DNA of 64,000 bases from Myxococcales bacterium (GTDB lineage: Bacteria > Myxococcota_A > UBA9042 > JABWCM01 > BTVJ01): the NCBI GenBank assembly GCA_045863395.1, contig BTVJ01000016.1, forward strand, positions 1 through 64,000, read 5' to 3'. The notes beneath the pieces were generated by a model, which worked only from the letters and a program-made list of their open reading frames with translations, was not told the DNA's origin and made no database searches. Below are positions 6,960-56,474 of the stretch, one piece after another. Both the position numbers and the translations under genes were made by a program. Within the stretch, counting starts at the first letter, position 1. The number at the start of each line of letters is the position of its first letter.

Positions 6960-7109
6960 ACGCCCTCGGGCGGTCCCGGGTCGAGCTGTCACCGGATGTG
7001 TGACGATTCGGCGATCTGGCTGGCGACACGCATCACCGGCGCGGTATACAGCGCTGCCTGACGGGGCGTCCCCCGGCCGGCCCGACCTTCCGTGACCCGG
7101 AGCCAGACC

Positions 7110-11099: not shown

Positions 11100-11272
11100 C
11101 CAGGCAGCGCGCGTCGCGACCGCCAGGGTTGCAGAGCGCCGCTGACGTCCCAGAATCAAACCGCGCTCGTTTGCTCGCGTTTCTTCCTTGCCCCTATAGA
11201 ATGAACGCACGATTGCCGTAGAGCTGCGGGCCCCATGCACGCGCATGTGGTGCTTCGCGTCAGGTGAGGGAC

Positions 11273-33762: not shown

Positions 33763-33862
33763 GGCCCCATAGGTCCACCGCAAGCCGTTCTTGTCAATCG
33801 GCGCTTGCCCGGCGCGGGACGCGACGCGCGCTTTTCCCCGCGGGCTGCTACACTGCCGGCCC

Positions 33863-36800
33863 ATGAAGGCGCTCCTGCCCATCGCCGCCATCGTCGTCGC
33901 GCTCCTGCCGCTGGTGCTGGCGTGGCTGCTGAGCCGCGTGGCGGGCGCGCGCCGCATCGCCCTCGGGCTGATGATCCTGGGGTCGGCGTACATCATCGAC
34001 GTCAACCTGCTGATGCACGAGCAGTACCGCGGTATGTCCCGCAGCTTCGACGTGGGCACCACGGACCTCCTGGTCCTGAGCCTCATCGTGTACCTGATGG
34101 GGCAGGGCAGCAGCCGCGGCCTGGTGTGGAGGGCCCCCTCCAACCCGGGCTCCGTCACCCCGGTCATGCTGATGCCGCCTGGGCTCCCGTTGCTGCTCCT
34201 CTTCGTGACGATTGCCGCGTTCTCCATCATCGGCTCGAGAGAGCCCCTCTATGGGTTCATGGACCTGTTCAAGCTGGTGCGGGGCCTGGCGGTGTTCTGG
34301 GTGAGCGCCAACCTGCTCGCCGACGACCGGAGCGCCAGGAACCTGCCGTTCTTCCTCCTGATCTTCGTGGGCGTGGAGATGGCGGTGGCCACGAAGCAGC
34401 ACCTCTCGGGGGTCTGGTGGGTTCACGGGACCTTCGAGCACAAGAACAGCTTCGCCATGAGCATGAACCTCATCCTGCCGGTCATGCTGGCGGAGGCGCT
34501 GCGCGCCAAGGGGTGGCGGGGCGCCATCCTGCTCGGCTACGGCGCCGGGGCGGTGGGGCTCATCCTCTCGCGCTCCCGCTTCGGCTGGGCCACGATGGGC
34601 CTCGCCGCGATGATCGTCACGTCGCTCTGCCTGATCCTGACATTCGTCAAGCGCGACCGCTCCCTGCTCCAGCGGCAGGTAGCGGTCCTGGCCCTCGCGG
34701 CCTTTCTGGCCATCCCGGCCATCGCCAAGTCCTTCGACAGCATCGTGACCCGTTGGGGAGAAGACGCGGAGGTTTCCATGGATTTCCGGCACCGCAACAA
34801 CGACATCGCCAAGGCCCTCGCCCGGGAGCATCCCTTCGGCGTCGGTCTGAACAACTACGTGAAGGAGCTGGATCAGCCCATCGGGCGGCTCCTCGACCCC
34901 ATCGACCGGACGGTCGCCCACCACCTGTACCACCTGGTGGCGGCGGAGACGGGCCTGCTTGGGCTGATCTCCCTGGTCGGCGCCATGCTTGCCTTCGTGT
35001 TCATGGCGCTGCGGACCATCGTGCAGGCGGTCAAGCCCTGGTCTCAGACGGTCGCCATCGGGCTCGGGGCCGGGCTCGTGTCGGCCATGCTCCACAGCTT
35101 CGGGGAGAGCGACCTGCTCCGCCGCGAGACCTACTTCATCTTCTGCATGTTGATGGGCTTCCTCGCCGGCATCCACGTGCGCGAGGGGCTGGGCGGGAGG
35201 AGCCTCCTGATGCGGCTCCTCGGGGAGTCGGTGCGGGCGACCCGGCGGCCCGGCTATGGGGTGATCGTGCTCGCGGTCCTGCTCGCCCCCCTGGTGCTCG
35301 CGGGGCCTGCCCAGGCCGCATCTCCGACCGTCACGCCGCTGTCTGCGCGCCACCTGAGGCTCTCCTACTCGGCCCTGATCACGCCGACCCAGGTCCCTCC
35401 CGCGTCCACGTTCCGCATCGAGGGCGCCGCGAGCAAGGTCGTCGAGGTGGGCCTCCACGCCTTCGCCGTGGGCAAGGTGGAGGACCCGTGGCCGCCGAAG
35501 GCCATCATGCGCTACGACCTGCACCTGGTGCTGGACGAGCCCCTGCCCGAGGACAAGGAGGTCAAGGTCATCACGCCGAGCTGGCTCCTGACGAGCCCGC
35601 TGCCGGTGCGCTTCTCGTCTCTGGATCCCTCTCCGGCCATCAAGCTGGCGCAGGTCGGCTTCCTGCCCGAAGACCCGAACAAGGCGGTGTTCATCGGCGC
35701 CTACCTGGGGACGCTGGGGCCCCTGCGCGCGGAGCCCAAGACCTTCGACGTGGTGGACCTGCGAAACAAGGCGGTGGTCCTTCGCGGCACGCCCAAGCGC
35801 ATCGCCGAGGACGACCGCGTCTACCGGGAGGAGATCTGGCGGCTGGACATTGGCGCCCTGAAGGAGCCCGGGCACTACGCCGTGCACGTGCCGGGGGTGG
35901 GGCGATCTCTGGACTTCCGCGTGGGCGCCGACGTGTACGACGCCCCTCTGACCGCGGTGCTGCGCGCCTTCTACCACCACCGCTGCGGCGTGGCCATCGA
36001 CGCGAAGTACACCCGCTTCTCGCGGCCAGCGTGCCACCCCAAGGAGCAGGTGGGCTGCTTCACCCCCGAGCTCGCCGAGACTCCACTGTACGACGGGGAG
36101 AAGGCCGGCGAGTGCCGCGACCTGACCGGCGGCTGGCACGACGCATCGGACTACGGAAAGTACGTGCCGACCGCGACGGTGGCAGTCCACAACCTCATGG
36201 TCGCCTGGCAGGCTTGGCCCGACGCCTTCCCGGACGGGCGGCAGGGGATCCCCGAGAGCGGAAACGGCATCCCCGACATCCTGGACGAGGTGGCCTTTGA
36301 GCTGGACTGGCTGCTCAAGATGCAGCGCGATGACGGCGGGGTCTACCACAAGGTCACCTCCCGCCAGTGGGGGACGGACAAGCCCCCCCATTTGGACCGC
36401 AAGACCTTCGACGTAGCCGAGCGCACCACCCACGACACGGCGCGGGTCGCGGCGGTGATGGCCGAGGGCGCGCGGGTCTTCGCCAAGGTGGCGCCCGAGG
36501 CGGCGGCGCGCTACAGAGCCGGCGCGGAGCGGGCGTGGAGCTTCCTGAAGGCCCACCCGAAGGCCGTCCCGGACCCGGGATTCCGCAACCGCGAGTGGAA
36601 CGGGGGCGGGGAGTACGCGGACCGCTTTGGCGACGACGACGAGCGGGCGTGGGCGGCGGCGGAGTGGATCGCGCTCACCGGGGAGGCGGGCTTCGACCAC
36701 TACGTGGTGGACAAGGTGCCCGAGCCGTACAACGTTCGTGTTCCGCCCCTGTATGTGCGCGACTGGCCTCCTCCCTTCGAGGACTGCTGGCGCTTCGCCT

Positions 36801-37402
36801 TCCACCGCTACGCCCAGCTCAAGCACCCGCAGCGCAACGCGAAGCTGCAGGCGGCCATCCGGGACGCCTGGCGGGTCCGCACCGACGGCATCGAGGAGGC
36901 GAGCGCCGAGGACCCCTACGGCATGGCGTTCCGGCCGCGGCCGGGCGTCCCCTTCGGCTACGGCACCAGCAACGGCCTGCGGTACGCCATGGACGTGGCC
37001 CTGGCCAACGTGCTGCTCGGGCAGACTCCGCGGCGGCGGGAGGCGGCGCTGTCGAACCTTGGCGCGCTCTTCGGGAACAACGGCCCGGGCTTCAGCTTCG
37101 TCACCGGCATCGGCGCGCGGGCCGTCAGGCAGCCCGAGTATCGTCCCAACCTCTTCGACGGCATCGACGAGCCGCTGCCCGGCCACCCGGTGGACGGCCC
37201 CGCCTTGGGGGTCCACTCGTCGAACAGGGACGCCGACAAGAAGCTCTGGCCGCCGCCCGAAGAGTACCCGCCCGGCCAGTACTACTTCGACATGATGGAC
37301 CCCATCATGTCGGAACCCACCATCCTGGAGATGAGCGAGGCCGTGATCGCGTTCGCGCCCTACGCCACGCCCAAGACGTCGCCCGACGGCAGCCCACGCT
37401 GA
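33863..37402 (+). CDS. Wzy/O-antigen-ligase-like membrane domain fused to a glycoside hydrolase family 9 (Ig-like + catalytic)
   Basis: N-half: GTFEHKNSFA, ILSRSRFGW, HPFGVGLNNY, AHHLY..AAETGLLG; C-half: QVGFLP..K.A, FYHHRCG, DLTGGWHDASDYGKY, NGIPDILDE..FELDWLLKMQ, SFVTGIG, SEPTI. Confidence 0.85.
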   Translation: MKALLPIAAIVVALLPLVLAWLLSRVAGARRIALGLMILGSAYIIDVNLLMHEQYRGMSRSFDVGTTDLLVLSLIVYLMGQGSSRGLVWRAPSNPGSVTPVMLMPPGLPLLLLFVTIAAFSIIGSREPLYGFMDLFKLVRGLAVFWVSANLLADDRSARNLPFFLLIFVGVEMAVATKQHLSGVWWVHGTFEHKNSFAMSMNLILPVMLAEALRAKGWRGAILLGYGAGAVGLILSRSRFGWATMGLAAMIVTSLCLILTFVKRDRSLLQRQVAVLALAAFLAIPAIAKSFDSIVTRWGEDAEVSMDFRHRNNDIAKALAREHPFGVGLNNYVKELDQPIGRLLDPIDRTVAHHLYHLVAAETGLLGLISLVGAMLAFVFMALRTIVQAVKPWSQTVAIGLGAGLVSAMLHSFGESDLLRRETYFIFCMLMGFLAGIHVREGLGGRSLLMRLLGESVRATRRPGYGVIVLAVLLAPLVLAGPAQAASPTVTPLSARHLRLSYSALITPTQVPPASTFRIEGAASKVVEVGLHAFAVGKVEDPWPPKAIMRYDLHLVLDEPLPEDKEVKVITPSWLLTSPLPVRFSSLDPSPAIKLAQVGFLPEDPNKAVFIGAYLGTLGPLRAEPKTFDVVDLRNKAVVLRGTPKRIAEDDRVYREEIWRLDIGALKEPGHYAVHVPGVGRSLDFRVGADVYDAPLTAVLRAFYHHRCGVAIDAKYTRFSRPACHPKEQVGCFTPELAETPLYDGEKAGECRDLTGGWHDASDYGKYVPTATVAVHNLMVAWQAWPDAFPDGRQGIPESGNGIPDILDEVAFELDWLLKMQRDDGGVYHKVTSRQWGTDKPPHLDRKTFDVAERTTHDTARVAAVMAEGARVFAKVAPEAAARYRAGAERAWSFLKAHPKAVPDPGFRNREWNGGGEYADRFGDDDERAWAAAEWIALTGEAGFDHYVVDKVPEPYNVRVPPLYVRDWPPPFEDCWRFAFHRYAQLKHPQRNAKLQAAIRDAWRVRTDGIEEASAEDPYGMAFRPRPGVPFGYGTSNGLRYAMDVALANVLLGQTPRRREAALSNLGALFGNNGPGFSFVTGIGARAVRQPEYRPNLFDGIDEPLPGHPVDGPALGVHSSNRDADKKLWPPPEEYPPGQYYFDMMDPIMSEPTILEMSEAVIAFAPYATPKTSPDGSPR

Positions 37403-37429
37403 CTTCCGCTCATTTGCGCGCATCGGATG

Positions 37430-37459
37430 TTGACACGGGCGCCGCCCATGCCCTACGTT
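37430..37459 (+). promoter_or_regulatory. Putative sigma70-type promoter of the DUF4157 operon
   Basis: TTGACA (37430-35), 18 nt, TACGTT (37454-59), ~35 bp upstream of GAGG RBS and ATG 37493. Confidence 0.55.
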
Positions 37460-37492
37460 CGGCTTTGGCATCCAACCCCAATGAGGTCCACC

Positions 37493-38785
37493 ATGGCTGA
37501 GCTGGTTCGCGCTTCCGCGCAGGGTCGCACCATTCGCCTGAAGGCCACGGGCTCGGGCTCAGGCCGCCACCTGAGCAGAGAACAGGCCGCGGGCGGCCAG
37601 CCGGACGACCTGCCCACCTCCCCCGAGGGCGCCAGCGTGAGCGCGCTTGGTCCCACCTACGAGGTCCGACCTCCAAGGCAAGGCAGCGAGGGCGAGGGGC
37701 CCATGGTCTCCACGTCGCCCGCCGGGCCCCACATCCAGCGGGACGGGGCGACCTCCATCGGGAGCTACATCGAGCGGACGGCCGGCGGCGGGAGCTCCCT
37801 GTCGAGCCAGGTGTCCCGCGAGATGTCCGGCGCCTTCGGCTACGACTTCAGCGGAGTCAACGTCCACAACGACTCGGCAGCCCACAACGTCTGCCGCAGC
37901 GTGGGGGCCAACGCCTTCGCCACGGGCAACGACGTGTACTTCGCGGCGGGGAAGTACGCCCCGGGCAGCCGGGAGGGCGACCGCCTCATCGCCCATGAGC
38001 TCACCCACGTCGTGCAGCAGAACGGCGGCGGGGTCGCGCGCAGCATCGCCAAGAAGGGCGTGACGTTCAGCACGCCGGGCGACCCCTACGAGACCCAGGC
38101 CGACGCGGTGGCGGAGACGGTCGTCGCCATGAAGTACGGCGGCGACGGCTCGAAGCTCGGCACCGTCAGCCGGAGCCCGTCGGGCTCGGCCCCGGACGTG
38201 TCGCGTGACCTGGACTCCATGCCTTCGACCACCCTCGCGAACGCAATCATCCAGCGCAAGATCGCCGGCGTCCCGGACGTACAGATGGACATCGGCATCA
38301 CCCTCGGCGTGGCGGGGCTCGTGGTGGGCATCGTGGGTCTCGGCGTTGGCTACGCGGCCTTCGGCGGCAACAAGTTGACGAAGTCCTTGAAGGAGCTTGT
38401 GGGCCAGCCCGGCGAGGCGCGGGATGCACACAGGGCGGCCAACCCCTGGCAGCGCAAGTCGTGGACGCCCATGCCACTTCAGCGAGCTGGCTCCATCGCG
38501 GGGCGCTTCTGGTATGGACTCCAGCTCTCCTGGGCTTACAACGGCCGAGAGATCAGCGATGTCGCCGTGGGCTTCGCGCCGGGCACCCAGAACCCGACCT
38601 TCGGCTCGTCGGAGGCCGAGTTCACGATCACGGACAACGTGGGCACGCAGACCAACCCGGCCCTCGGCTACCGGTACAGCGTGGACTATGACCCGGCGGC
38701 GGGCGGCCACTACGAGTACAGCGGGACAGGTCAGTTCAATGCCAGGGGCGGGGCGGACGGCACCCTCAATCGCCGCTCGTTGTAG
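37493..38785 (+). CDS. DUF4157 (eCIS core domain) protein with hydrophobic segment and unknown C-terminal domain; putative effector
   Basis: MSGAFGYDFSGVNVH...GANAFATGNDVYF..GKYAPGSREG.RLIAHELTHVVQQ, PGDPYETQADAVA; then DIGITLGVAGLVVGIVGLGVGYAAFGG and a Tyr/Gly/Thr-rich beta-like tail. Confidence 0.9.
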   Translation: MAELVRASAQGRTIRLKATGSGSGRHLSREQAAGGQPDDLPTSPEGASVSALGPTYEVRPPRQGSEGEGPMVSTSPAGPHIQRDGATSIGSYIERTAGGGSSLSSQVSREMSGAFGYDFSGVNVHNDSAAHNVCRSVGANAFATGNDVYFAAGKYAPGSREGDRLIAHELTHVVQQNGGGVARSIAKKGVTFSTPGDPYETQADAVAETVVAMKYGGDGSKLGTVSRSPSGSAPDVSRDLDSMPSTTLANAIIQRKIAGVPDVQMDIGITLGVAGLVVGIVGLGVGYAAFGGNKLTKSLKELVGQPGEARDAHRAANPWQRKSWTPMPLQRAGSIAGRFWYGLQLSWAYNGREISDVAVGFAPGTQNPTFGSSEAEFTITDNVGTQTNPALGYRYSVDYDPAAGGHYEYSGTGQFNARGGADGTLNRRSL

Positions 38786-38831
38786 CGCACGGCAGGGCAC
38801 GGGTGCCACGGGCTCGTTGCGGGAGGTCCAT

Positions 38832-39548
38832 GTGAGCAGCGCCCACGACCGCCTGGCGCGCTCCGAGGCGTGGGGGCTCCGGGTGGATCAGTGGCGTGCG
38901 GCAGGGCACCACGACCGAGACGTCTGCCGCGCCGCCACCTACCGCTGGCCCGTGACGTGGGCCGAGGTGGAGGGTCGGGTCAGCCAGACATCCACAGCGC
39001 AGGGCTCCCCAGATCTCCCTCCCCTACCACCCGCCGCACACACGCTCCCGAGTCTGCTCGACGGGCCCACGGAAGAGGCGCCGTGGTGGCTCACGGGCGA
39101 GCTCCCTGAAGCACTGCGCCGCGCCGCATCGTCGCCGCTCCTCGCTGCGTCGCTCCTCCGTGCCGCCGACGCGCGGCCGAGCGGCCTGGCCGCAGCGCGG
39201 GGCCTCGTCACGCTGTCCAGCCTCGCCACCCCGCGCGGCGACCTGACCGTGGACGCCGCCTGGGCGCAACCTCTTGGGGCCGCACTGCGACACGCCCTCC
39301 AGGGCCAGCGGCTCGTCCCGTTCCTCGACCCGCAGCTCTTCGCCGGGCTCGCCGTCGCCGGCATCCACGCGCTCTCCTTCGCGTCTGCCCTCGCCCCGAC
39401 GGATGCGGACCGGGTGGCGCTCTGTGAGGAGTGGGTGGAGCTGCTGCTGGCGGCCGAGGAGCACGACCCGGCCGGAGACTCGCTCGGAGATCGGGCGCGC
39501 CGCCTGGCCCCGGCGATGGCCGGCGTGACCCAGAGGGGGACGCCGTGA
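38832..39548 (+). CDS. Hypothetical helical protein (~238 aa)
   Basis: GGAGG RBS before GTG 38832; stop overlaps the next start (GTGA). Confidence 0.7.
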   Translation: MSSAHDRLARSEAWGLRVDQWRAAGHHDRDVCRAATYRWPVTWAEVEGRVSQTSTAQGSPDLPPLPPAAHTLPSLLDGPTEEAPWWLTGELPEALRRAASSPLLAASLLRAADARPSGLAAARGLVTLSSLATPRGDLTVDAAWAQPLGAALRHALQGQRLVPFLDPQLFAGLAVAGIHALSFASALAPTDADRVALCEEWVELLLAAEEHDPAGDSLGDRARRLAPAMAGVTQRGTP

Positions 39549-41362
39549 GGGTGGAGCTGCTCTTCCCCCCTCTGTTCAAGGCCAGCGAGCCGTACATCGC
39601 GCTGCCGCTCCTCGTGGGGTTCCTGCGCGAAAACGGCGTACCGGACGTGCAGGCGCGGGACCTGAACCTGGACTACGTCTACCACCTGATGGAGGATTCG
39701 ACCCTCGCTGAGGCAGGGCGGGAGCTGCTCGGGCGCCCTCCCGCGGGCACGTGGCTCGACGACGCGGAGCGCACCCTGGTGGGCGCCGCGCTCACCCACG
39801 TGCCCGTGCTGCGACGCTGGCTCCCGGAGTCGCTGGAGCTCTACAGAGCCCACAGGGATCCCGAGGCGCTCCGCGCCATGCCGCGCCAGCAGGCGCAGAG
39901 ACAGGCCGCCCAGTTCGAGCTCGTCTTCGAGATGCTCTTCGAGGTGTACTCCGCCCTCCACTACCCCTGGCGCATGGAGAACCCCATCACGAGGCGGGAG
40001 GCGGTGCTGTCCAACGAGACATGGACGATGGACGAGTCCAACAACGTCCCGTGGCGGGACTGCCTGGCCTGGGACCACCCGCGCAATCCGTTCCGCGCCT
40101 TCTTCGAGTCGTCCGTGGCGCCGGGCCTTGCGGAGCGGCGCCCGTCCGTGGTCGGGATCTCGCTCATGTTCCGGCAGCAGCTCCTCGCGGCGTTCACCCT
40201 GGCCGCGGTCGTGCGGAGAGCCCTCCCGGAGGCCCATATCTGCCTCGGAGGCGCGCTGTTCAGTGACCTGGAGCACTATCTCTTCACCGCGCCCGCCGTG
40301 CGGGACGCCGTGTTCCAGCACGTGGACTCCGTGGTGCTCGGACCCGGCGAGGTGCCGCTGCACGGGCTCATCCAGGCGCTTGGAGCGGGCGCCGCCGTGG
40401 AGGGGGTCTCCAACGTGCTCACCCGCGCCGGCGTGGAGCGGGCGTCCGGCGGTGACATCGCCGGCAGCATCGAGGAGCTGAGCGGCTTCGACCCGGCCGG
40501 GCGCGAGTCTGCCGAGCTCGACCGCTTCGCGACCCCCATCTTCTTCGATGGACGGCTCGACCGCTACCTGTACCGCACGCGGGAGCTGACGATTCCCTAC
40601 CTGACATCCTACGGGTGTTACTGGAACAAGTGCTCCTTCTGCAAGTACCGGGAGCAGGTCCACCGCTACTCGCCCAAGCCCGTGGACACGGTCGTCCAGG
40701 ATCTGCGAGCCTTGTCGGCGCTGCACGGGAGCCGACGCTTCCACTTCAGCGATGAAACACTATCTCCCTCTTACTGCAAGCGCCTTTCGGCTGGATTGAT
40801 CGACGTCGGTTCACCGTTCGCGTGGTCGGGCAACGCGCGCTTCGACCCCGGCTTCACCGTGGAGCTGGCCACCGCAATGCGCAGGTCCGGGTGCGAGTAT
40901 ATCTCGTTCGGCCTCGAGTCCGGCTCCCAGCGAATCGTCGACCGCATGGGCAAGGGCACCCGCTCCGAGGTCGTCGAGCGGACCATGGAGGCATTCCGCG
41001 CTGCCGGGCTGCCCGTGAACCTGTATCTGTTCGTTGGCTTCCCCGGCGAGACGGAGGAGGACATCGCGCTGACCGTCGCGTTCCTGCGGCGCCACCGGGA
41101 GGCCATCACGGATCTCTCGGTGGGGCCGTTCACCCTCTACAAGGGGACCGGGGTGTTTCGAGACCCTGCGCGGTACGGAATCCGGGACGTGGAGCAGGGA
41201 GAGCTCCGGGACCCCGAGGTGCTCCGCTGGGTCTATCACTACGAGTTGGCCGAGGAGACTGGTGGCCTGATGCCCGAGGAGGCCATGACGAAGTATCTGG
41301 TGCACCACCGTGACCTCTTCGGGCAGATGGGCGAGGGCCTCTCACCCGATGGCACCTGGTGA
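39545..41362 (+). CDS. Cobalamin-binding radical SAM enzyme (class B-like)
   Basis: LLFPP...PYIAL..L...L, DLNL, VVGISL...QQL, ICLGGA (B12 domain); SYGCYWNKCSFC cluster motif; FHFSDE, SFGLESGSQR, FVGFPGET. Confidence 0.92.
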   Translation: MRVELLFPPLFKASEPYIALPLLVGFLRENGVPDVQARDLNLDYVYHLMEDSTLAEAGRELLGRPPAGTWLDDAERTLVGAALTHVPVLRRWLPESLELYRAHRDPEALRAMPRQQAQRQAAQFELVFEMLFEVYSALHYPWRMENPITRREAVLSNETWTMDESNNVPWRDCLAWDHPRNPFRAFFESSVAPGLAERRPSVVGISLMFRQQLLAAFTLAAVVRRALPEAHICLGGALFSDLEHYLFTAPAVRDAVFQHVDSVVLGPGEVPLHGLIQALGAGAAVEGVSNVLTRAGVERASGGDIAGSIEELSGFDPAGRESAELDRFATPIFFDGRLDRYLYRTRELTIPYLTSYGCYWNKCSFCKYREQVHRYSPKPVDTVVQDLRALSALHGSRRFHFSDETLSPSYCKRLSAGLIDVGSPFAWSGNARFDPGFTVELATAMRRSGCEYISFGLESGSQRIVDRMGKGTRSEVVERTMEAFRAAGLPVNLYLFVGFPGETEEDIALTVAFLRRHREAITDLSVGPFTLYKGTGVFRDPARYGIRDVEQGELRDPEVLRWVYHYELAEETGGLMPEEAMTKYLVHHRDLFGQMGEGLSPDGTW

Positions 41363-41865
41363 GGGAGACGATGACAGACGGCTTCCCGCTGGAGGACGAG
41401 ATGCTGCGCTTCTGGCGTGCCCGATCCGACTATCTGGGGGTCCTCGGCCGACTCCACGGCGCGCGCGGCGAGACTGCCCGAGCCACCGACTGCCTCACTC
41501 GCCGCGCGGCCCTCGCTCACCATCTGAGAGACGCGGGGCGCCAGCTCGACGCCCTGGCCGGCCTCTCGGACGTCGCAATCGCCGCAGGTCGCCCGGGAGA
41601 CTCGCTCTGGGCATTGCAGCGTGCGGCCCCCTTGGCATCGGACGCCGGTGTCGACGAGCTGGCGGCCGCCCTCGGTCGGGCGCTGCCGGCGTGGGCTGGA
41701 GCCCTCCCAGCCCGGGAGGTCCTCGGTGCGCTGGGCGCGATCCTGGGCGACGCTCCAAGCGGCGCCCTCCGCGCGGCCCTTGCCGGCGCCCTGCGAGCGC
41801 TCGGTGATCCGGCTCGGGCAGCGGAGCTGGAGTCCCCACCACCTTCGGAGGTCGAGGCCCGATGA
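41359..41865 (+). CDS. Small TPR-like helical protein
   Basis: LGVLGRLHGARGETARA..L and ALAGLSDVA.AAGRPGDSL..LQRA TPR-like patterns; translationally coupled on both sides. Confidence 0.7.
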   Translation: MRETMTDGFPLEDEMLRFWRARSDYLGVLGRLHGARGETARATDCLTRRAALAHHLRDAGRQLDALAGLSDVAIAAGRPGDSLWALQRAAPLASDAGVDELAAALGRALPAWAGALPAREVLGALGAILGDAPSGALRAALAGALRALGDPARAAELESPPPSEVEAR

Positions 41866-43745
41866 GCACCACACTGACTCCCGCCGAGCGATACTCCATC
41901 GGGCTCAGCGTCCTCCTCAACATGGGCTCGCTGACCACCTTGAGCCGCGAGTCTGGGCTGTCGCTCCGGCAGCTCCAGGAGCTGCGGGACGACTTCCTCG
42001 CCGCAGCGCGCCGCGGCCTGGAGGGCGGGGATGGGCCAGCGACCGCCCTGCCCGTGGAGCTGGCGCTCCACGAGCTCCGCCTGGCGGGCGACTTCGAGGC
42101 GGTGGGCGACGCGGAGGCGGCGGGCGCGGCCTTCCAGCGCGCCATCGCCCTCGACCCGGGGAGCGGCCTCGCGCGCAAGGCCTGGGGCATCCACCTCTTC
42201 GGGCAGCGCCGCCTCGACGAGTCCCGGGGAGCCCTCGAGGCGGCCCTGGAGCGCCTCGGCGAGGACGGAGAGTGCGACTGCGTGCTCGCCATGGTGCACC
42301 GCCTGGAGGGGCGCGACAGGGAGGCGGAGCGCCTGCTCGCGCGAGGCACGCGGAGACCAGGGCTCCCCGACTACCTCCTCGGGCCGCTGGTCGATCTGCA
42401 CCTGGATCTCGGGCGCACCCAGGAGGCGCTGCTCTTCCTGGAGCGGGAGCGCGCCCTCCGGGATGGCGCGGGCGGGGCGCAGGCCGCCTATGCCCACGCG
42501 ACGCTCCTCAAGCGGCTCGGGCGCTTCGAGGAGGCCGCCGAGATCGCGGAGGGGGCAGTAGAGTCCAGTGGCGCCGTGCCGCTGGTCCTCCTGCTCGCAT
42601 CCCTGGAGGTGCTCTGCCTGGACCGGCCGGCTCGTGGCATCGCGCGGCTGCGCCAGCTCGTGGATGCGTGGCCCGCAGATCCGCTGCCGCGGCTCGTGCT
42701 GGGAGAGATGCTGCTGGCTACGGGGGCCCATGCCGAGGCGGAGCAGGAGCTGCTGCGGGTGCTCTACCGCGGGCCTGCCAACGGGCGCGCCATCCAGGCG
42801 ATCACCGACCTGTACCTGAGCGCCGGGAACGCTGAGAGGCTCCGCCACATCGGCGCGGAGCTGCGGAGGGAGGGCGAGGGGGTCTACGGGGGCCTGCTCA
42901 TCGCCCAGGCCCACGTGGCAGAGGGGCGCTTCGAGGACGCGCTCCGCGAGCTGACGGGCCTGCGAGAGCAGGTGCCGCACAACGTGGCGGTGCTCGTCCT
43001 CATCGCCCACGTGGCGTTCGAGACCGGCGACGAGGGGAGCGTAGGGTCCGTGCTGGGGGCGCTGGTCGACCAGCTCGCCCGGCGCCGCGGGCTCAGCCCC
43101 GAGGAAGAGCAGGCGGCGCTGTCCCTCTGCCGCTACCTGCGCCTCAACGGCCGCCCCGACGTCTCGCTCCGGGTCCTGGACGCCCTGCCGCGACCGGCCG
43201 CGGGCGCCCCCGGAGTCGAGGTGGAGCGTGGGCTCTGCCTGGCTGAAGCCGGCCGCACCGAGGAGGCCCTCGTCGCCCTGACGGCGGTGCAGCAGCGGGA
43301 GCCCTTCGACGGTATCCACGGCACACGCCTCGCCTACCACCTGCTCCACCACCACGGGGACGCCGAGCGGGCCCGCGCCGTGATCACGGCGACCCGGCGC
43401 CAGGCGCGCCCGAGCGAGGAGTTCGCCGTGAGCCTGTGCGCGACGTACCTCGCGCTTGGCTCGCTCCCCGAGGCGCTGGACGTGGTCCACGAGGCGTTTC
43501 TCGCCCGGAGCAAGGTCCCGGTGGTGACGACGGAGCTTCACCGCGCGGTGCAGGGGCACAGTGGCGACCTGACGACTCCCCAGCAGCTTGCCGCACACGT
43601 CGTGATGATGCTACGGGCCCGGTCTCCCGAGCGCGCGGCAGAGCACCTGGCCGCCGCGCGGCAGCTTGCCCGCACCGAGGCGGAGCGTTCCGTGTGCGAC
43701 CAGCTCTCGCGCGCGTCGCAGGTAGCCGAGGAGCGGGTGCCGTGA
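41862..43745 (+). CDS. TPR protein with N-terminal helix-turn-helix-like domain
   Basis: N-term TPAERYSIGLSVLL..GSLTTLSRESGLSLRQLQELRDDFL; AFQRAIALDP and many LG...EA TPR units. Confidence 0.82.
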   Translation: MSTTLTPAERYSIGLSVLLNMGSLTTLSRESGLSLRQLQELRDDFLAAARRGLEGGDGPATALPVELALHELRLAGDFEAVGDAEAAGAAFQRAIALDPGSGLARKAWGIHLFGQRRLDESRGALEAALERLGEDGECDCVLAMVHRLEGRDREAERLLARGTRRPGLPDYLLGPLVDLHLDLGRTQEALLFLERERALRDGAGGAQAAYAHATLLKRLGRFEEAAEIAEGAVESSGAVPLVLLLASLEVLCLDRPARGIARLRQLVDAWPADPLPRLVLGEMLLATGAHAEAEQELLRVLYRGPANGRAIQAITDLYLSAGNAERLRHIGAELRREGEGVYGGLLIAQAHVAEGRFEDALRELTGLREQVPHNVAVLVLIAHVAFETGDEGSVGSVLGALVDQLARRRGLSPEEEQAALSLCRYLRLNGRPDVSLRVLDALPRPAAGAPGVEVERGLCLAEAGRTEEALVALTAVQQREPFDGIHGTRLAYHLLHHHGDAERARAVITATRRQARPSEEFAVSLCATYLALGSLPEALDVVHEAFLARSKVPVVTTELHRAVQGHSGDLTTPQQLAAHVVMMLRARSPERAAEHLAAARQLARTEAERSVCDQLSRASQVAEERVP

Positions 43746-43784
43746 CCGCCTGTGCAGCGCCAACAACCCGAGAGGAGGACAGAC

Positions 43785-44018
43785 GTGAAGCGTGACCCGT
43801 CCCTGGTAGGGCTCTTGATGATCGTGGCCGGCCTGCTGGCGGGCCTGCTCCCCGCGACCGTGCTGGCCCAGGTGCCGGACACCGGGGCAGCCAACGCCCA
43901 GACGGCGATCATCCTGAATGGAGCAGGCAACGTGATCATCGGCGTCGGGCTCATCATCGTCGCCTTGGGGCAGCGTCGGCTCAGGGCGCGCATCGACCGG
44001 CTGGAAGCGGGGCGCTGA
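43785..44018 (+). CDS. Small two-TM membrane protein (77 aa)
   Basis: AGAGGAGG RBS before GTG 43785; two hydrophobic segments then a basic/coiled tail. Confidence 0.75.
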   Translation: MKRDPSLVGLLMIVAGLLAGLLPATVLAQVPDTGAANAQTAIILNGAGNVIIGVGLIIVALGQRRLRARIDRLEAGR

Positions 44019-44022
44019 CCCG

Positions 44023-46152
44023 GTGCAGCCCTACCACTCGCCCTACGAGCTGCTCCTCGACCAGATCGAGCGGGCCTTCCTGCTGACCGAGCGGGCCGTG
44101 CGCCAGCCGTGGACCGCCCCGGGTGGGCCGCGCCAGGCGCCCGCGTCGCTCCTGCGCCTCCTCGGCGCCGACCGGGTGGGGGACCCGACCGAGGAGCAGC
44201 AGCGAGTCGCGCGCATCGAGGGGGAGCTCGGCGACCTGCAGGACGTCACCACGGCGCGTCTCCAGGCAGCACGGCTCGCAGGCCCCTCCCTGCCCGCCAT
44301 CGTGCGGCACCTCGGGCTCGACGCCCTCCAGACGGACCTGCTGCTGCTCCTGCTGGCCTACGAGCTGGACGCGCGCTTCTTCGCACTCTACGCGCACCTC
44401 CAAGGAGAGCGGCGTCGTCACGGCGTGGACGCGGCGGTCCTCGCCGAGATCGTGTGCCCCACGCCGTGGCTCCGCGCGCGCCTCCTCGAGGAGATCTCGC
44501 CCCGGGGGACCCTGGTCGCCCACCGGCTCGTGGAGGTGATGCCCACGGACTCGCAGAGCCCGCCCCCCTTGGTCCTGACGCCGCTGCGGGTGCACCCGGC
44601 GGTGCTCGACTTCGTGATGGGGGCGCCCCCGGCCCCCGTCCCCTACCGGGTCATCGTGACGCCCACGCTCGGCCCGTCCGACCTGGTGCTGGGCGAGGGG
44701 GCGGCCGCTGCCCTGGAGAGCCTGCGCGGCCGCCTCGCCGCGTGGGACAGCGCCCCAGCCCTGCTCCTCCACGGCCCCGAGGGCACGGGGAAGCGCTCCT
44801 TCGTGGGCGCCCTCTGCAGGGACCTGGGCCTCGGCCTGTTCGAGCTGGACCTCGGGCGCGCCTCCCCGGAACCGGAGACCTTCGACGAGGAGGTGCGCCG
44901 CTGGCTCGTCGAGGGCACGCTCTACCGCGCCGTCTGCCTCGCGAGCCCCCTCGACGCGCTGATCGCCCCCGAGGGCGCGCCGGCGGACCCGCGGCTGCGC
45001 ATCCTCGCCCAGCATGTGGACGCGAGCGCGGGCCCCGTCGCCCTGTCGAGCCGCACGCCCTACCCGCTCCACCGGTGGTTCCGCCGCCCCACCTCCAGCG
45101 TGTCCCTCGGGCGCCCCACGGCGGCCATGCAGGAGTCCCTCTGGCGCGCCGAGCTGGGGAGAGCCGGCGCCTGGCTGCCCACGGAGCAGGTCCAGGAGCT
45201 GACCGTGCGCTACAACGTGTCAGGCGGAACCATCCGGGGCGCCATCGACCAGGCGGTGCGGTGGCGCGGCCCCCTCGCCGCGTCGGGGGCAGTGTTTGAC
45301 GTGGTGGAGCAGAGCCTGCGGCGCCACGTGGGGACGCGCCTGTCGGAGGTCGCCACCCGCGTCCAGGCGCTGGCCACGCGGGAGGACCTGATCACGTCGC
45401 CGGAGCTGATGGACCGCGTCGACGCGCTGCTGGCCCGAGTCCACCACCGGCACCAGGTCCTGGGCGCCCAGGGCATGGGCCGGCGCCTGCGCCTCGGGGC
45501 CGGCGTCACGGCCCTCTTCTGGGGCCCGCCCGGCACCGGCAAGTCCATGGTGGCCGGCGTCATCGCCCGCGAGCTGGGCTTCGAGCTCTACCAGGTCAAC
45601 CTGTCGGGCATCCTCTCCAAGTGGCTCGGCGAGACGGAGAAGAACCTGGCCCGCCTCTTCGACGAGGCGGAGACCGGCCACGTGATCACGCTCTTCGACG
45701 AGGCGGACAGCCTGTTTGCGACCCGCACCAGCGACGACTCGCCCCAGGGCCAGGCCAGCGTCCAGCGCATCAACTTCATCCTCACGCGCCTGGAGACCTT
45801 CCGGGGCTTCGCCATCCTGACCTCCAACCGGGAGCAGGCGGTGGACCCCGCCTTCAAGCGCCGCCTCAACGCCAGCGTGTACTTCCCCATCCCGGATCTG
45901 ACGGTGCGCGAGCGCATCTGGACCCACATGCTCGCGGGCCTGGGCGACGACCTCCCCGTGGAGCTGCTGGCCCGCTGCGAGCTCTCGGGCGGCTACATCA
46001 GGAACGCCGTGGCCACCGCCGCCTTCCTCGCAGCGCGCCGCGGCCAGCGGGTGAGCCCCCCCATCGTGCTCGCGGCGCTGCGCCAGACCCTCGACGACCT
46101 GGGCCACGTCGTCCCCATGTGGCTGATCGAGGCGGCGGCGGCGGACGCCTAA
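44023..46152 (+). CDS. Double AAA+ ATPase of the Afp15/Pvc15 (eCIS ATPase)-like type
   Basis: N-terminal [17 protein letters not shown]; Walker A GPEGTGKR and [61 protein letters not shown]. Confidence 0.9.
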
Positions 46153-46311
46153 GGGCCCGTGCAGTAATAACCTGATCCACCGAGGGCGCTGATGCGCCCC
46201 GCTGGGGGTTCGACGAGACCGCAGGCAGGGCCTTGTCCTTCCAAGGTCTCGGCGGGCCGCCAGCGGGGATGCAGCGGCGGCCGAATGGACAGGTTATTGC
46301 TGCACGGGCCC
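46153..46311. mobile_element. MITE (non-autonomous, IS5/Harbinger-like ends), 159 bp
   Basis: TIRs gggcccgtgcagtaataacctg (46153-74) and caggttattgctgcacgggccc (46290-311), 21/22 matches; TAA on both flanks (46150-52, 46312-14); no convincing coding capacity. Confidence 0.85.
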
Positions 46312-46889
46312 TAATACAGCTTCGGCTCGTTACCCGGGCGCCACTTGATGTTGCACCCCAAGGAGGCGCGCTGCACCTCCAAGGGCGGCTCCCCTGCCAG
46401 GCAAGCGTCGATGGCTCGGGCAAGGTCCGCGCCCGTGACGGGGACCCCGTTGCTGGGGCGGGAGTCGTCGAGCTGGCCCCGGTAGACCAGGCGACGGCCC
46501 TGATCGAAGAGGAAGAAGTCCGGGGTGCAGGCGGCGTGGTAGGCGTGGGCCACGTCCTGGGTGTCATCGAAGAGGTACGGGAAGCGCCAGCCCTCCGCGC
46601 GCGCAAGCTCCGCCATGTGCTCCGGGCCGTCCTGGGGGTGTGTCTCGACGCTGTTCGCGTTGATGGCGACCACGGCGAGGCCGCGGTCCATGCGGTCATG
46701 GACCAGGCGCGCCAGGGTCTCGCGCACGTGGATCACGTACGGGCAGTGGTTGCAGATGAACATCACCAGCAGGGCCGGCGCGTCCATGAAGTCCGCCAGG
46801 GAGACCGTGCGGCCGGTGACCGTGTCGCGCAAGGTGAAGTCGGGCGCCGGAGTGCCGAGCGGGAGCATCGTCGATGGGGTGCGGGCCAT
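46311..46889 (-). CDS. Thioredoxin/AhpC-TSA family redoxin
   Basis: MARTPSTMLPLGTPAPDF, FICNHCPYV, YHAACTPDFFLFD, YRGQLDDSRP, SLGCNIKW. Confidence 0.93.
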   Translation of the reverse strand: MARTPSTMLPLGTPAPDFTLRDTVTGRTVSLADFMDAPALLVMFICNHCPYVIHVRETLARLVHDRMDRGLAVVAINANSVETHPQDGPEHMAELARAEGWRFPYLFDDTQDVAHAYHAACTPDFFLFDQGRRLVYRGQLDDSRPSNGVPVTGADLARAIDACLAGEPPLEVQRASLGCNIKWRPGNEPKLY

Positions 46890-53373: not shown

Positions 53374-54437
53374 TGGAGCGCTTCACCGCCCTGGGGGGCC
53401 CGGCGGTCGAGGCGCGCATCGCCAGCGACCTGGACGTGTGCATCCGAGGCATCCGCGACGCCCTGCGGCCCCTCCCCATCCGCGGCGTCGTGATCGGGGG
53501 CGGCCTCGGGCGTGGTGAGGGCGGGATCCGCAGGGAAGGCGGGGAGGAGCTCCCCTACAACGACTACGACCTGTTCGTCGTCGTGGACGCCCCGTCCCTG
53601 CTCCTCTCCATGGTGCGCCCTCGCGTCAACCGCCTTGCCGCCGCGCTGACCACCTCGCTGAACGTCGAGGTGGAGATCGGCGTACTGCGCCCCACCGATC
53701 TCGCGGCCGCGCCGCCCACGCTCATGATGACGGATCTGCGCGCGGGCCACCGGGTGCTCGTCGGGCCGCCGGACCTGCTCTCCGCCATGCCCGCCGGGCG
53801 GCCGCTCGCGCCGGTGGAGGCGTCGCGCCTGCTCCTCAACCGCGGCGCGCTGCTGGTCATGGCGCGCCAGCTCGTCGACGGCGGCCCCCTCGGACCTCAA
53901 GAATGGGAGCGCGTCGCCCGATACGTCCGCAAGTCCGTGCTGGCGCGGGGAGACTCCTGGCTCATGCTGCGTGGCCGCTACCTGACCGGCGCGCAGGCGT
54001 GCGCCGAGCGCCTGGCTGCGGAGGGTCCGCCGGACCTCGCCGACGCCTATGGTCGCGCAGTGCGGGAGCGGCTGGGTGGGATCGAGGCTCCGGGAGACCC
54101 CGGCGAGAGCCTCCGTGCGGAGGCGGAGGCGCTGGTCGGTGCCTTCGGGGCAGCCGAGTCGGCCCGCCTCGGCGGCTCATGGCCGCCCTTCAGGACCTAT
54201 GGCCGGACCGTGCTGGCCGCGGAGGGCGCGAGCCCCGCGCGGGAGCGCCTGCGGGTCGCGCGCCATGCGGGCCCCGGGGCCCTGGTCGGAGGGCGCCCGT
54301 GGGCCCGCTGCGCCGCACTGCTTCCGTGGGTCCTGGCGGGCGAGGCGACGGGAATTGCGCCGGGCTGCGCGCTGGGACCCGCACGAACGCAGGGCGACGC
54401 GGTCCGCTGGCTCGCCCTCTGGCGCGCCAGCGCGTAG
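53374..54437 (+). CDS. Nucleotidyltransferase-fold hypothetical protein
   Basis: VVIGGGLGRGEGG...PYNDYDLFVV resembles the hG[GS]..R..DhDh Pol-beta NTase signature; GTG start just after the wza stop (ORF track gives 53373). Confidence 0.7.
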
Positions 54438-54463
54438 AGTCAGGACGACCAGGAGCGCTCAGG

Positions 54464-55645
54464 ATGCCGGAGACCCTGCACATCAACGTGTTCGTGGACG
54501 CGCTGGGGTGGCGCATCGCCGCCCCGCGCAACCTGTTGCCCGAGCTGGACGCGGTGCGCCAGCCCGTGCGCACGGTGCTGGGCTACTCATCCGCGGCCGT
54601 GCCGACCATCCTCACCGGGGTCCTGCCCCGGGTGCACGGCCAGTGGTCCTTCTACTTGTGGGGCCCCGAGGCGTCTCCTTTCCGCTGGCTCCGCCCCCTG
54701 TCGGTGCTCCCCCACCGGGTCGCCGCGCACCACCGCGTCCGGCGCCCCATCAGCGCCGTGGTCAAGCGCGCGCTGGGTTACACCGGCTACTTCAACCTCT
54801 ACGCGGCCCCCTTCAGCCGCGTGTGGCAATGGGACTGGTGCGAGAAGGAGGACCTGTTCGCCCCCGGCGGGGTCAATGGCCACGCGACGATCTTCGACGC
54901 GCTGGACGAGGCCGGCGTGCGCCACCACCGCTCCGACTGGCGCAGGCCCGAGGACGAGAACATCGCGGCAGCGATCACCGCGGCCAAGGACCCGCGCACC
55001 GGCTTCGTCTTCGTGTATCTGGCGGGCCTCGACGCCGTACTTCACAGGTACGGGCACCCGGGCGCCGACCGCCCGGAGGGCGCCGCCCGCTACGAGGACG
55101 CGGTCCGCCGCATCGTCGCCGCAGGCAAGGGCGCCCACGACGACGTGAGGGTGTGTGTGTTCAGCGACCACGGCATGGCCGAGGTGCACCGGGTGGCGGA
55201 CCTGCGACACGCCGTCGAGGCGACGGGCCTCCGGTACGGCACCGACTACGCGGCCATCTACGACTCCACCATGGTCCGCCTGTGGTACCTGCGGCCGGAG
55301 CACCGCCCCCGGTTGGAGCAGGCGCTGGCGGCGACGGGCGCGGGGCGGTTCCTGTCCGAGCACGACCTGGCGGCCTCGGGCGCCGACTTCCCGGGTCACC
55401 GTTACGGCGAGGGCATCTTCCTGTGTGATCCGGGCGTGCTCGTGGTGCCGAGCGACATGGGCCTCACCCCCATCGCCGGGATGCACGGGTACGGGGAGGA
55501 CGACCCGGACTCCGACGCCGTGCTCCTGAGCTCCCACCCGCCTGCGGCGCCCGTGCGCCGGATCGACGACCTGAACCGCATGATGCGCGCCCAGGTGGGC
55601 CTCCCGCCCGCCCCCGGGGCGACGCCTCTCGAGGAGGCCGCATGA
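54464..55645 (+). CDS. Alkaline phosphatase superfamily / nucleotide pyrophosphatase-phosphodiesterase
   Basis: VFVDALG, GYSS...PTILTG..P..HG, LDAVLH.YG, FSDHGM, GMHGY; no signal peptide. Confidence 0.87.
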   Translation: MPETLHINVFVDALGWRIAAPRNLLPELDAVRQPVRTVLGYSSAAVPTILTGVLPRVHGQWSFYLWGPEASPFRWLRPLSVLPHRVAAHHRVRRPISAVVKRALGYTGYFNLYAAPFSRVWQWDWCEKEDLFAPGGVNGHATIFDALDEAGVRHHRSDWRRPEDENIAAAITAAKDPRTGFVFVYLAGLDAVLHRYGHPGADRPEGAARYEDAVRRIVAAGKGAHDDVRVCVFSDHGMAEVHRVADLRHAVEATGLRYGTDYAAIYDSTMVRLWYLRPEHRPRLEQALAATGAGRFLSEHDLAASGADFPGHRYGEGIFLCDPGVLVVPSDMGLTPIAGMHGYGEDDPDSDAVLLSSHPPAAPVRRIDDLNRMMRAQVGLPPAPGATPLEEAA

Positions 55646-56472
55646 TCTCTCAGCCCGTCGCGCAGTATGCCGACTTTCCAGCGACCGACGGCCGTCCCGA
55701 GCCGGTCCTTGGCTCCCTGCGCCGGGTGGAGGTGCTCGGGGTGCCGGTGGACACCCTCTCCCGGGCCTCCTTCTGCGGGGCAGTGGAGGAGCTGATCGCC
55801 CGACCGGCGCCCTCCGTGCTCGCCCCCGTGAACGTGGACATCCTGAACCAGGCCGTCGGCAACGGGCGGCTGCGAGGCTTCCTCCGCCGCGCAGACGTCG
55901 TCTACGCGGACGGGGCCGGCGTGGTCCTCGGCGCCCGCCTGAGCGGCGGGAACCTCCCGGGCCGCCTGACGGCCGCCGACCTGATCCACGACCTGTGCGA
56001 GGCATGGCGGGACGGGCGCCACAGCATCTACTTCCTGGGCGGCGCCCCGGGGGTCGCCGAGAGGGCGGCCGACGCGCTTCGGGAGGCCCACCCTGGCGCC
56101 CGCATCGCCGGTACCTGGCCGGGCCACCTGTCACCGCAGGAGGAGCTGCGCGCATTGGCGGACATCGCGCACCGTCGCCCCGACGTGCTGTGCGTCGGCT
56201 TCGGGACCCCCATCCAGGAGGACTTCGTCGAGCGCCATGCCGAGGCCCTCGCGCACGTGCCTTTGATCTGGCCCGTGGGGGCCCTGACGACGTACATTGC
56301 TGGCGCCGTCCCGAGAGCACCGGCCTGGATGGGCGACGCGGGGCTCGAGTGGCTCTTCCGCCTGTCCCTGGAGCCGCGGCGGCTGTTCCGCCGCTACGTG
56401 ATCGGAAACCCGCTGTTCGTGGCGCGCGTGCTGGCCCAGGCCGTGGGGCGCGCGCGCAAGGAGAGGTCGTGA
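55642..56472 (+). CDS. WecB/TagA/CpsF (GT26) glycosyltransferase
   Basis: ADGAGVV, IYFLGG, VGFGTPIQE, RAPAWM...GLEWLFRL..EPRRLFRRY. Confidence 0.93.
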   Translation: MISQPVAQYADFPATDGRPEPVLGSLRRVEVLGVPVDTLSRASFCGAVEELIARPAPSVLAPVNVDILNQAVGNGRLRGFLRRADVVYADGAGVVLGARLSGGNLPGRLTAADLIHDLCEAWRDGRHSIYFLGGAPGVAERAADALREAHPGARIAGTWPGHLSPQEELRALADIAHRRPDVLCVGFGTPIQEDFVERHAEALAHVPLIWPVGALTTYIAGAVPRAPAWMGDAGLEWLFRLSLEPRRLFRRYVIGNPLFVARVLAQAVGRARKERS

Positions 56473-56474
56473 CC

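Follow-up and report, generated by a model that had tools for sequence, protein, structure and literature searches.

A candidate orphan cargo cassette for a contractile injection system in a Myxococcales bacterium, with a DUF4157 protein, its own Afp15/Pvc15-type ATPase and a cobalamin-type radical SAM enzyme

How extracellular contractile injection systems (eCISs) choose and load their cargo is an open question and a bottleneck for their use in protein delivery. In AlgoCIS of Algoriphagus machipongonensis, as described in the accessible part of a preprint, the cargo proteins Cgo1 and Cgo2 consist of a disordered N-terminal domain, a DUF4157 domain and a variable C-terminal domain, and the N-terminal domain is required for Alg15 loading (10.64898/2026.05.27.728243). 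The available portion of a report on Pvc15 describes a second AAA module (D2) with a DEAD-type Walker B motif (PMC11495950). In Halogeometricum borinquense, according to the available text, DUF4157 proteins encoded off the contractile injection system (CIS) cluster are secreted in a CIS-dependent manner, and downstream partners prevent their toxicity (PMC11566945). Here we compare with these systems a seven-gene operon (g1 to g7, positions 37493-46152, forward strand) from a Myxococcales bacterium. It lies in a stretch of 64,000 nucleotides, hereafter the window, that begins contig BTVJ01000016.1 (C16) of assembly GCA_045863395.1, and it encodes a DUF4157 protein, an Afp15/Pvc15-type ATPase and, between them, a radical S-adenosylmethionine (SAM) enzyme, two tetratricopeptide repeat (TPR) proteins and two further small proteins.

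As far as the preprint text extends, g1 resembles Cgo1 and Cgo2 in its disordered N-terminus, DUF4157 domain and variable C-terminal domain, and with 430 amino acids (aa) it is near the 498 aa of Cgo1; a winged-helix domain (WHD)/AAA+ ATPase is the proposed loader in both systems, Alg15 in AlgoCIS and g7 in the window. The ATPase of AlgoCIS, numbered 15 in the nomenclature of CIS genes, is encoded within the CIS cluster, as are the AlgoCIS cargos. Unlike AlgoCIS, the window's cargo and ATPase genes are on another contig than the structural operon, which has no ATPase gene, and the window operon adds the radical SAM enzyme, the two TPR proteins and a protein with two transmembrane helices (2-TM). 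Pvc15 and Afp15 (Photorhabdus PVC and Serratia Afp), in the published portions available, share with g7, which is known from its sequence, a winged-helix-like N-terminus, a first AAA module (D1) and an active D2 with a DEAD-type Walker B motif; they are, however, single-copy and encoded between the tape-measure and Pvc16 genes, whereas g7 is one of 13 dispersed paralogues. The Halogeometricum DUF4157 pairs are likewise encoded away from the CIS cluster. The available text on them mentions neither a dedicated ATPase nor a radical SAM gene, whereas the window cassette has both, its toxin and immunity roles being putative.

The operon belongs to a known kind of effector-plus-ATPase cassette, probably for an eCIS, in which the radical SAM/TPR insert is new and is the only unusual part. 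A sequence-only reading of the window had called the whole a candidate new system. It is not a one-off: the operon is one of at least six effector-plus-ATPase cassettes in its genome, and a Nostoc plasmid carries a further cassette of this type. The same reading knew of no described system with this combination of genes, and the literature joining contractile injection with radical SAM enzymes, judged by titles and abstract beginnings, holds none either. The DUF4157 passages of two papers from the orphan-DUF4157 literature likewise describe no such cassette (supplements lay outside the search, and eCIS catalogues may list such loci), and contractile injection, Myxococc and Afp15 were not found together in the literature search. 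Our preferred reading, to which we assign a probability of roughly 0.6, is that the operon serves the eCIS of this genome as an orphan cargo cassette, in which g7 is the dedicated loader and the genes in between are cargo-specific accessories.

A compact operon with a candidate cargo and an ATPase

All seven genes are on the forward strand, as first proposed, and the third-position GC of their called frames (0.82-0.99) agrees with the open reading frame (ORF) listings. The predicted tight junctions are likewise present: g1 and g2 are separated by a 46-nucleotide (nt) gap, the g2/g3 and g3/g4 junctions are GTGA overlaps, g4 and g5 share an ATGA overlap, and gaps of 6 and 4 nt separate g5 from g6 and g6 from g7, respectively. 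The window has a G+C content of 72%, shows no GC anomaly and contains no tRNA gene, and the candidate tRNA/island signature for the operon region was rejected on these grounds.

The g1 gene (37493-38785, 430 aa) could also start at 37427, but the ATG at 37493, which is preceded by GAGG, is the likelier start. Its product matches PF13699 (eCIS_core/DUF4157) in Pfam with E 1.8e-30 and 105 bits against a cut-off of 22; the HExxH domain is encoded at nt 37799-38029, and a HELTH motif is visible in the family alignment. In the AlphaFold2 (AF2) model the predicted local distance difference test (pLDDT) score is 22-34 for aa 1-91, which is a proxy for disorder only, 70-82 for the DUF4157 part and 50-70 for the C-terminal beta domain. 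The first 91 residues are rich in G, S, A and P, and 58 of the first 100 are G, S, A, R or P. The hydropathy profile displays one hydrophobic glycine-rich helix (aa 263-292), and behind this lies a conserved, beta-rich C-terminal domain of about 130 aa. By sequence and model, g1 has the features expected of an eCIS cargo, namely a DUF4157 domain with HExxH and a putative disordered N-terminal region in front of it. The C-terminal part has seven relatives in 1.84 billion representative sequences; five of them are full-length (401-469 aa), and all five align with the DUF4157 part in front. The C-terminal family was not found in the 400 other genomes of the phylum that were searched.

A hexapeptide, GVPDVQ, is common to g1 (38267-38284) and g3 (39635-39652). 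In g1 it lies at the family-invariant start of the C-terminal module, and in g3 it lies near the N-terminus of the radical SAM enzyme; VPDVQ occurs just 10 times in the 17.5 million six-frame residues of the genome. The sharing is probably due to chance, because other radical SAM homologues show G-x-E-x-V at this position, and a link between g1 and g3 on this basis was rejected.

At the other end of the operon, g7 (44023-46152, 709 aa) matches AAA (E 1.2e-29) and PF22977 WHD (E 3.2e-20) in Pfam. An N-terminal winged-helix region (aa 1-200) is followed by D1 with GPEGTGKR at residue 251 and by D2 with GPPGTGKS at residue 501 and FDEAD. The same WHD+D1+D2 architecture with FDEAD is found in the Serratia pELP1.10 ATPase, which is sited between the tape-measure and Pvc16 genes and is 38.9% identical to g7 over the D2 region. 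The architecture of the proposed loading-type ATPase is supported by the two AAA modules behind a WHD, as in the Serratia eCIS ATPase, and by the Walker A and FDEAD Walker B motifs of D2. In a quick LG+G4 tree of 22 rows, 19 WHD-ATPases including g7 form one clade with 100% support against three generic AAA outgroup rows, and one row intended as outgroup was placed within the WHD-ATPase clade. Residues 448-651 of g7 also match the defence ATPase IetA (PADLOC, E 2e-31), and the NCBIfam model IteA scores 93.8 bits against a cut-off of 510. A defence-system reading on the strength of the PADLOC matches, as IetAS or otherwise, was rejected: these matches are limited to the generic D2 module, and the operon encodes no IetS-type protease, the DUF4157 zincin being its only protease family in Pfam.

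All seven genes are covered by contigs from RNA libraries of sludge and wastewater, which come from three studies. A single 4475-bp contig in X1, of depth 41.3, extends from g1 to the start of g5, and in X2 a contig with g1 and g2 has a depth of 60.6 and the next one, from g3 to the start of g5, a depth of 10.2. Such differences in depth speak for RNA and against carried-over DNA. The contigs start at 37479, 37497, 37526 and 37620 in four runs of the three studies, and the depth rises from 0.7-17 in the upstream gene to 34-60 (X1 and X2), a weak hint of a transcript start near the 5' end of g1. The operon is probably a real eCIS cargo cassette that is expressed. The TTGACA-type promoter that had been proposed fares less well: the hexamer is indeed present at 37429-37434 (forward strand, read directly), but a consensus promoter scan of 37000-46600 returned no promoter-like site, and the hexamer is a -35-like sequence only.

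From these features we infer the following mechanism. The cargo would be g1, with a disordered N-terminal loading sequence, DUF4157 and a small, membrane-active-looking C-terminal effector domain that may be toxic. As a dedicated unfoldase of the Afp15/Pvc15 type, g7 would recognise the g1 N-terminus and feed the protein into the tube of eCIS particles encoded on other contigs. The TPR proteins g4 and g5 may be chaperones that keep the hydrophobic cargo soluble, and g3 would be an added maturation enzyme of the cassette. For g2 and/or the 2-TM protein g6 we propose a role as immunity or holding factors, because downstream partners prevent the toxicity of the dispersed Halogeometricum DUF4157 toxins.

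Structural genes and sister cassettes on other contigs

The genome (8.77 Mb in 186 contigs) does encode an eCIS, in agreement with the expectation that it would be found away from the operon. Matches to sheath, tube, gp25 and Baseplate_J are located on contigs C80, C18, C60, C29 and C11; the absence of sheath, tube and baseplate genes, originally noted for the window, extends to the whole of contig C16. On C80 (6320-19139) we find Pvc16_N, two sheath genes, two tube genes, a 1573-aa protein, CIS_tube-LysM and GPD, and on C18 (about 54400-61000) gp25, Baseplate_J and Tail_P2_I. The division of the structural genes between C80 and C18 is either a rearrangement or an effect of assembly. Neither contig carries a g7-like ATPase.

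There are 13 g7-like ATPases in the genome and 16 matches to the WHD (PF22977). Five of the nine DUF4157 genes adjoin an ATPase gene (on C16, C30, C50, C37 and C1). The cassette on C37 has the order DUF4157-302 aa-259 aa-ATPase, i.e. the layout of the window operon minus its extra genes. An effector-plus-ATPase cassette without DUF4157 lies on C46 (6424-15925, locus L114), where a WHD-AAA ATPase is followed by a 2105-aa protein with a terminal ADP-ribosyltransferase toxin domain and then by an uncharacterized 294-aa protein. With 13 paralogues, of which five stand by a DUF4157 gene and one by an ADP-ribosyltransferase toxin gene, the window operon appears as one member of a family of the "effector plus own ATPase" kind. 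The initial description, a free-standing operon in which a candidate DUF4157 cargo is paired with an Afp15-type ATPase, is supported. Similar cassettes occur in other genomes: DUF4157-228 aa-210 aa-ATPase in G293, an ATPase beside a 2985-aa DUF4157 protein with a calpain-like end in G010, and DUF4157 (2074 aa)-204 aa-ATPase on the Nostoc plasmid, where the annotation shows no eCIS gene over a distance of 10 kb.

The PF22977 winged-helix also occurs in the genome as a stand-alone protein of about 220 aa, at C44:24834-25355 (L130) and C24:69387-69965 (L132), where it adjoins a DUF3987 primase-like gene or type I restriction genes.

The N-terminal regions of the nine DUF4157 proteins were compared for a common signal, and this candidate was rejected, none being obvious; only the proteins from C19 and C24 resemble one another at the N-terminus.

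The radical SAM/TPR insert

The product of g3 (39545-41362, 605 aa) matches Radical_SAM (PF04055) in Pfam with E 1.1e-16; its B12-binding match, at 25.5 bits, is under the cut-off of 32.1. The AF2 model (pLDDT 86.6) has a long helical insert of about 100 aa (aa 40-138) in its Rossmann domain, and Foldseek retrieves OxsB (3.5e-14), MgmA (3.2e-13) and TsrM (8e-13), as well as AprD4; the four align with the model over 394-525 columns. More broadly, g3 shares an N-terminal Rossmann (B12) domain and a radical SAM barrel with OxsB (5ul3), MgmA (9ccb), TsrM (6wte), AprD4 (6fd2), CysS (9n1c) and TokK (7kdx), at Foldseek E values of 3.5e-14 to 3.5e-10 and sequence identities of 13-20%. It differs from all of these in the Rossmann insert and in the spacing of its cluster motif, which is Cx4Cx2C (GCYWNKCSFC, nt 40616-40642, aa 358-366) instead of the usual Cx3Cx2C. 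This spacing recurs in 60 of the 62 g3 homologues, and C358, C363 and C366 are invariant across 29 sequences; as a side result, a pattern for the spacing matched several hundred genome stretches. The modelled fold and the Radical_SAM match confirm g3 as a class B (cobalamin-type) radical SAM enzyme with predicted cobalamin binding, as had been suggested from the sequence. By its scores g3 belongs to no named radical SAM family: the best NCBIfam models are PhpK TIGR04479 (106.1 of 600 bits) and, second, a C-methyltransferase of ribosomally synthesized and post-translationally modified peptides (RiPPs), TIGR03975 (104.6 of 281.85 bits).

Close relatives of g3 are rare. Among 5.8 billion proteins there are three, at 92, 47 and 48% identity, and all others are at most 35% identical. 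The scan of genome contigs returned relatives of 26-34% identity only, and of the metagenome scans A3 returned none and A5 eight loci (25-40% identity). The 92% homologue of g3 and a 75% homologue of g2 both have a longest contig of 6789 bp, and this equality hints that g2 and the radical SAM gene stay linked in the nearest relative.

Among the remaining accessory proteins, g2, g4, g5 and g6 are all without paralogues in this genome. The orphan protein g2 (38832-39548, 238 aa, called from the ORF list and third-position GC) matches no Pfam, NCBIfam or PADLOC family, and its homologues are a 99%-identical variant (P0063) and the 75%-identical one. The Atlas model of g2 is of poor quality (pLDDT 0.37) and its neighbours, of TPR/HEAT-like type, are weak; g2 is probably a helical-repeat protein and a candidate immunity protein or adaptor. 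A predicted complex of g2 with the C-terminal domain of g1 scored 0.00, in runs made without controls. The small stand-alone TPR protein g4 (41359-41865, 168 aa) has a weak Pfam match (TPR_MalT, E 0.002), an Atlas feature score of 0.96 to TPR clusters and a model of its own with pLDDT 0.77. The larger g5 (41862-43745, 627 aa) matches TPR_19 (E 7e-19) and eight further TPR-type Pfam families, and at E up to 1e-5 its homologues are itself and one 29%-identical TPR protein only. The gene order of DUF4157 protein, orphan, cobalamin radical SAM enzyme, TPR, TPR, 2-TM protein and ATPase is as first described, but the helix-turn-helix assigned to g5 is not seen, its first 80 aa matching no Pfam family at E up to 5. 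In g6 (43752-44018, 88 aa), which has no Pfam family, the hydropathy profile predicts two membrane helices (aa 15-42 and 51-73).

It is doubtful, although among the alternatives it survives best, that the block g3-g5, perhaps together with g2, is a separate module that was inserted into a DUF4157-ATPase cassette, shares its transcript and acts on a small molecule, lipid or peptide. Other cassettes carry only one or two small uncharacterized genes between DUF4157 and the ATPase (302 and 259 aa on C37, 228 and 210 aa in G293, 204 aa in Nostoc), g2, g4, g5 and g6 are without paralogues, radical SAM genes are common in the genome (59 matches), and the depth in X2 falls from 60.6 over g1-g2 to 10.2 over the contig that begins with g3. 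However, the overlapping stop and start codons from g2 to g5 and the gaps of 4-6 nt up to g7 argue for co-translation as one unit, X1 has g1 to g4 on one contig at one depth (41.3), and the operon contains no transporter, precursor or tailoring genes of a natural-product cluster.

Slightly more doubtful is an extension of the cargo-cassette reading, in which the radical SAM enzyme would modify g1 or its partner g2 before loading, e.g. by C-methylation of an unactivated carbon, with the TPR proteins presenting the substrate. The position of g3 is suggestive, as it is tied by GTGA overlaps to both g2 and g4 between cargo and ATPase, g1 to g4 lie on the one 4475-bp RNA-library contig in X1, and the apparent linkage of g2 with the radical SAM gene in the nearest relative, indirect as it is, points the same way. 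So do the second-best NCBIfam model and the best match by sequence in the PDB, MgmA (9ccb, E 3.6e-8), which is also among the best fold matches and whose database entry reads methyl-coenzyme M reductase glutamine methylase. MgmA acts on a whole protein; by analogy it offers a precedent, not evidence, for a modification of the cargo by g3. On the other side, no DUF4157 or WHD-ATPase gene was found near the distant radical SAM homologues (0 of 92 and 0 of 8 loci), a generic AAA gene lying beside one only of these 92 and 8 loci. A lack of recurrent linkage between radical SAM, DUF4157 and ATPase genes is what the sequence-only reading had named as refuting it, and such linkage is not observed among these relatives, all of them distant. 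Moreover, a B12-type radical SAM gene occurs at one of the relatives' 40 sampled ATPase loci, on the converging strand, the family scores of g3 are far under their cut-offs, and the Pfam scans of the seven operon proteins detected no RRE/PqqD-type domain.

A modification of the cargo in RiPP style is speculation: none of the seven proteins is a RiPP precursor, leader peptidase or exporter, and a small precursor is possible, as ORFs below 60-85 aa were outside the search. Less likely still is the more specific proposition that a CIS protein effector, or the membrane segment of it that is chaperoned, is matured by the enzyme and only then threaded into the particle by an AAA+ loader specific to that effector. 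If true, it would be the first radical-SAM-modified CIS cargo, in a lineage whose loaders moved away from the structural operon and expanded to about one for each cargo. The cassette raises the question of whether a cargo may depend on maturation by an enzyme and on TPR chaperones before it is loaded. If g3 does act on the cargo, radical SAM protein modification would extend to secreted toxins; otherwise the cassette would remain a compact, probably expressed test case with a small cargo of 430 aa.

Distribution among relatives and surroundings of the operon

A survey of 71 genomes from the class, each with a completeness of 90% or more, found the ATPase in 66, Pvc16_N in 57 and DUF4157 in 61. 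Among the 57 genomes with Pvc16, 56 have DUF4157 and 55 at least two ATPases, and the corresponding numbers for the 14 genomes without Pvc16 are 5 and 4. As these 71 genomes are kin, this co-distribution is a pattern rather than a test. In the four relatives examined, the eCIS operon is contiguous from Pvc16 to Baseplate_J, its sheath is 83-88% identical to that of the genome studied here, and there is no g7-like ATPase within about 10-30 kb of it. Conversely, tblastn searches with the own genome's structural proteins found no eCIS structural genes next to any of the relatives' ATPase loci, of which the 40 best-scoring were sampled. The class can be regarded as a natural experiment: each genome has a single conserved structural operon that lacks the ATPase, together with 2-13 loader paralogues scattered elsewhere, many of them beside widely differing toxins, so that the specificity of loader for cargo could be read from the paralogue pairs.

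Several observations weigh against our reading of the operon as an orphan cargo cassette. No eCIS gene lies on contig C16, and the connection with the eCIS is consequently one of domain association and co-distribution only. According to the available part of a published study, known eCIS toxins are located at most 10 genes from the operon in 88% of cases (PMC11297309). A position within about ten genes of an eCIS operon is not what we find for g1, the structural genes being on other contigs of this 186-contig assembly. The nine DUF4157 proteins share no obvious N-terminal motif, and a Foldseek search with a low-confidence model (pLDDT 49) matched the C-terminal domain of g1 to no solved fold (best E 0.13), which leaves its toxicity unproven. 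In the ATPase tree, the Nostoc orphan groups with the five eCIS-embedded ATPases that were sampled in a subclade (99%) to which g7 does not belong. The own-genome paralogues also fall outside it, and g7 pairs with the C30 paralogue (96%); the deeper order is a polytomy, which leaves the predicted affinity of g7 to Afp15 tentative. DUF4157 lies within about 9 kb of 8 of the 40 sampled ATPase loci, and the ATPase family is therefore not tied to DUF4157 alone. Finally, RNA libraries may include DNA, and their contigs prove neither a start nor a strand nor a single transcript.

The least probable of the alternatives is that DUF4157-ATPase cassettes are independent of the eCIS and form an intracellular conflict or defence module, or have an export route of their own, with the AAA+ motor unfolding or activating a zincin-like membrane protein. 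In its favour are the separation of all 40 ATPase loci from eCIS structural genes, the five of 14 genomes that keep DUF4157 without a Pvc16 match (four of them with at least two ATPases), the IetA match of the g7 D2 module and the stand-alone WHD beside restriction and primase genes. However, the five exceptions are drafts of 90-95% completeness, three of them with congeners that have Pvc16, all six genomes of family f11 lack DUF4157, multi-copy ATPases and Pvc16 together, the IetA match concerns a generic AAA module and is not accompanied by an IetS-type protease, and secretome data in the available text link dispersed DUF4157 proteins to the CIS (PMC11566945).

Enrichment of radical SAM genes near such cassettes was a further candidate that we rejected. 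In G001, the only other genome of the order at least 90% complete among those searched, two of the six ATPase loci with known coordinates have a radical SAM gene within 5 kb (L149 on C373 and L159 on C61, both of them DUF4157-ATPase cassettes). This proximity is near chance, as G001 has 42 radical SAM matches in 7.2 Mb, and the neighbours are of other types: at one locus a B12-type and a SPASM-type gene, which lie on the converging strand, and at the other, 1.35 kb downstream, a GT4-rSAM-SPASM fusion.

Immediately upstream of the operon, at 33791-37402 on the forward strand, lies a gene for a 1203-aa fusion of Wzy_C (an O-antigen-ligase-like membrane domain), a CelD_N Ig-like domain and a GH9 glycoside hydrolase; it stops 24-90 nt before g1, and its depth in the RNA libraries is much lower than that of the operon. 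Two other large fusions are encoded farther upstream in the window, both on the forward strand: a 1610-aa Ser/Thr kinase-AAA_16-TPR-GAF-HisKA-HATPase protein at 11222-16054 and, at 7062-11099, an amidohydrolase of 1345 aa that also carries thrombospondin-3 repeats and a lamin-tail domain.

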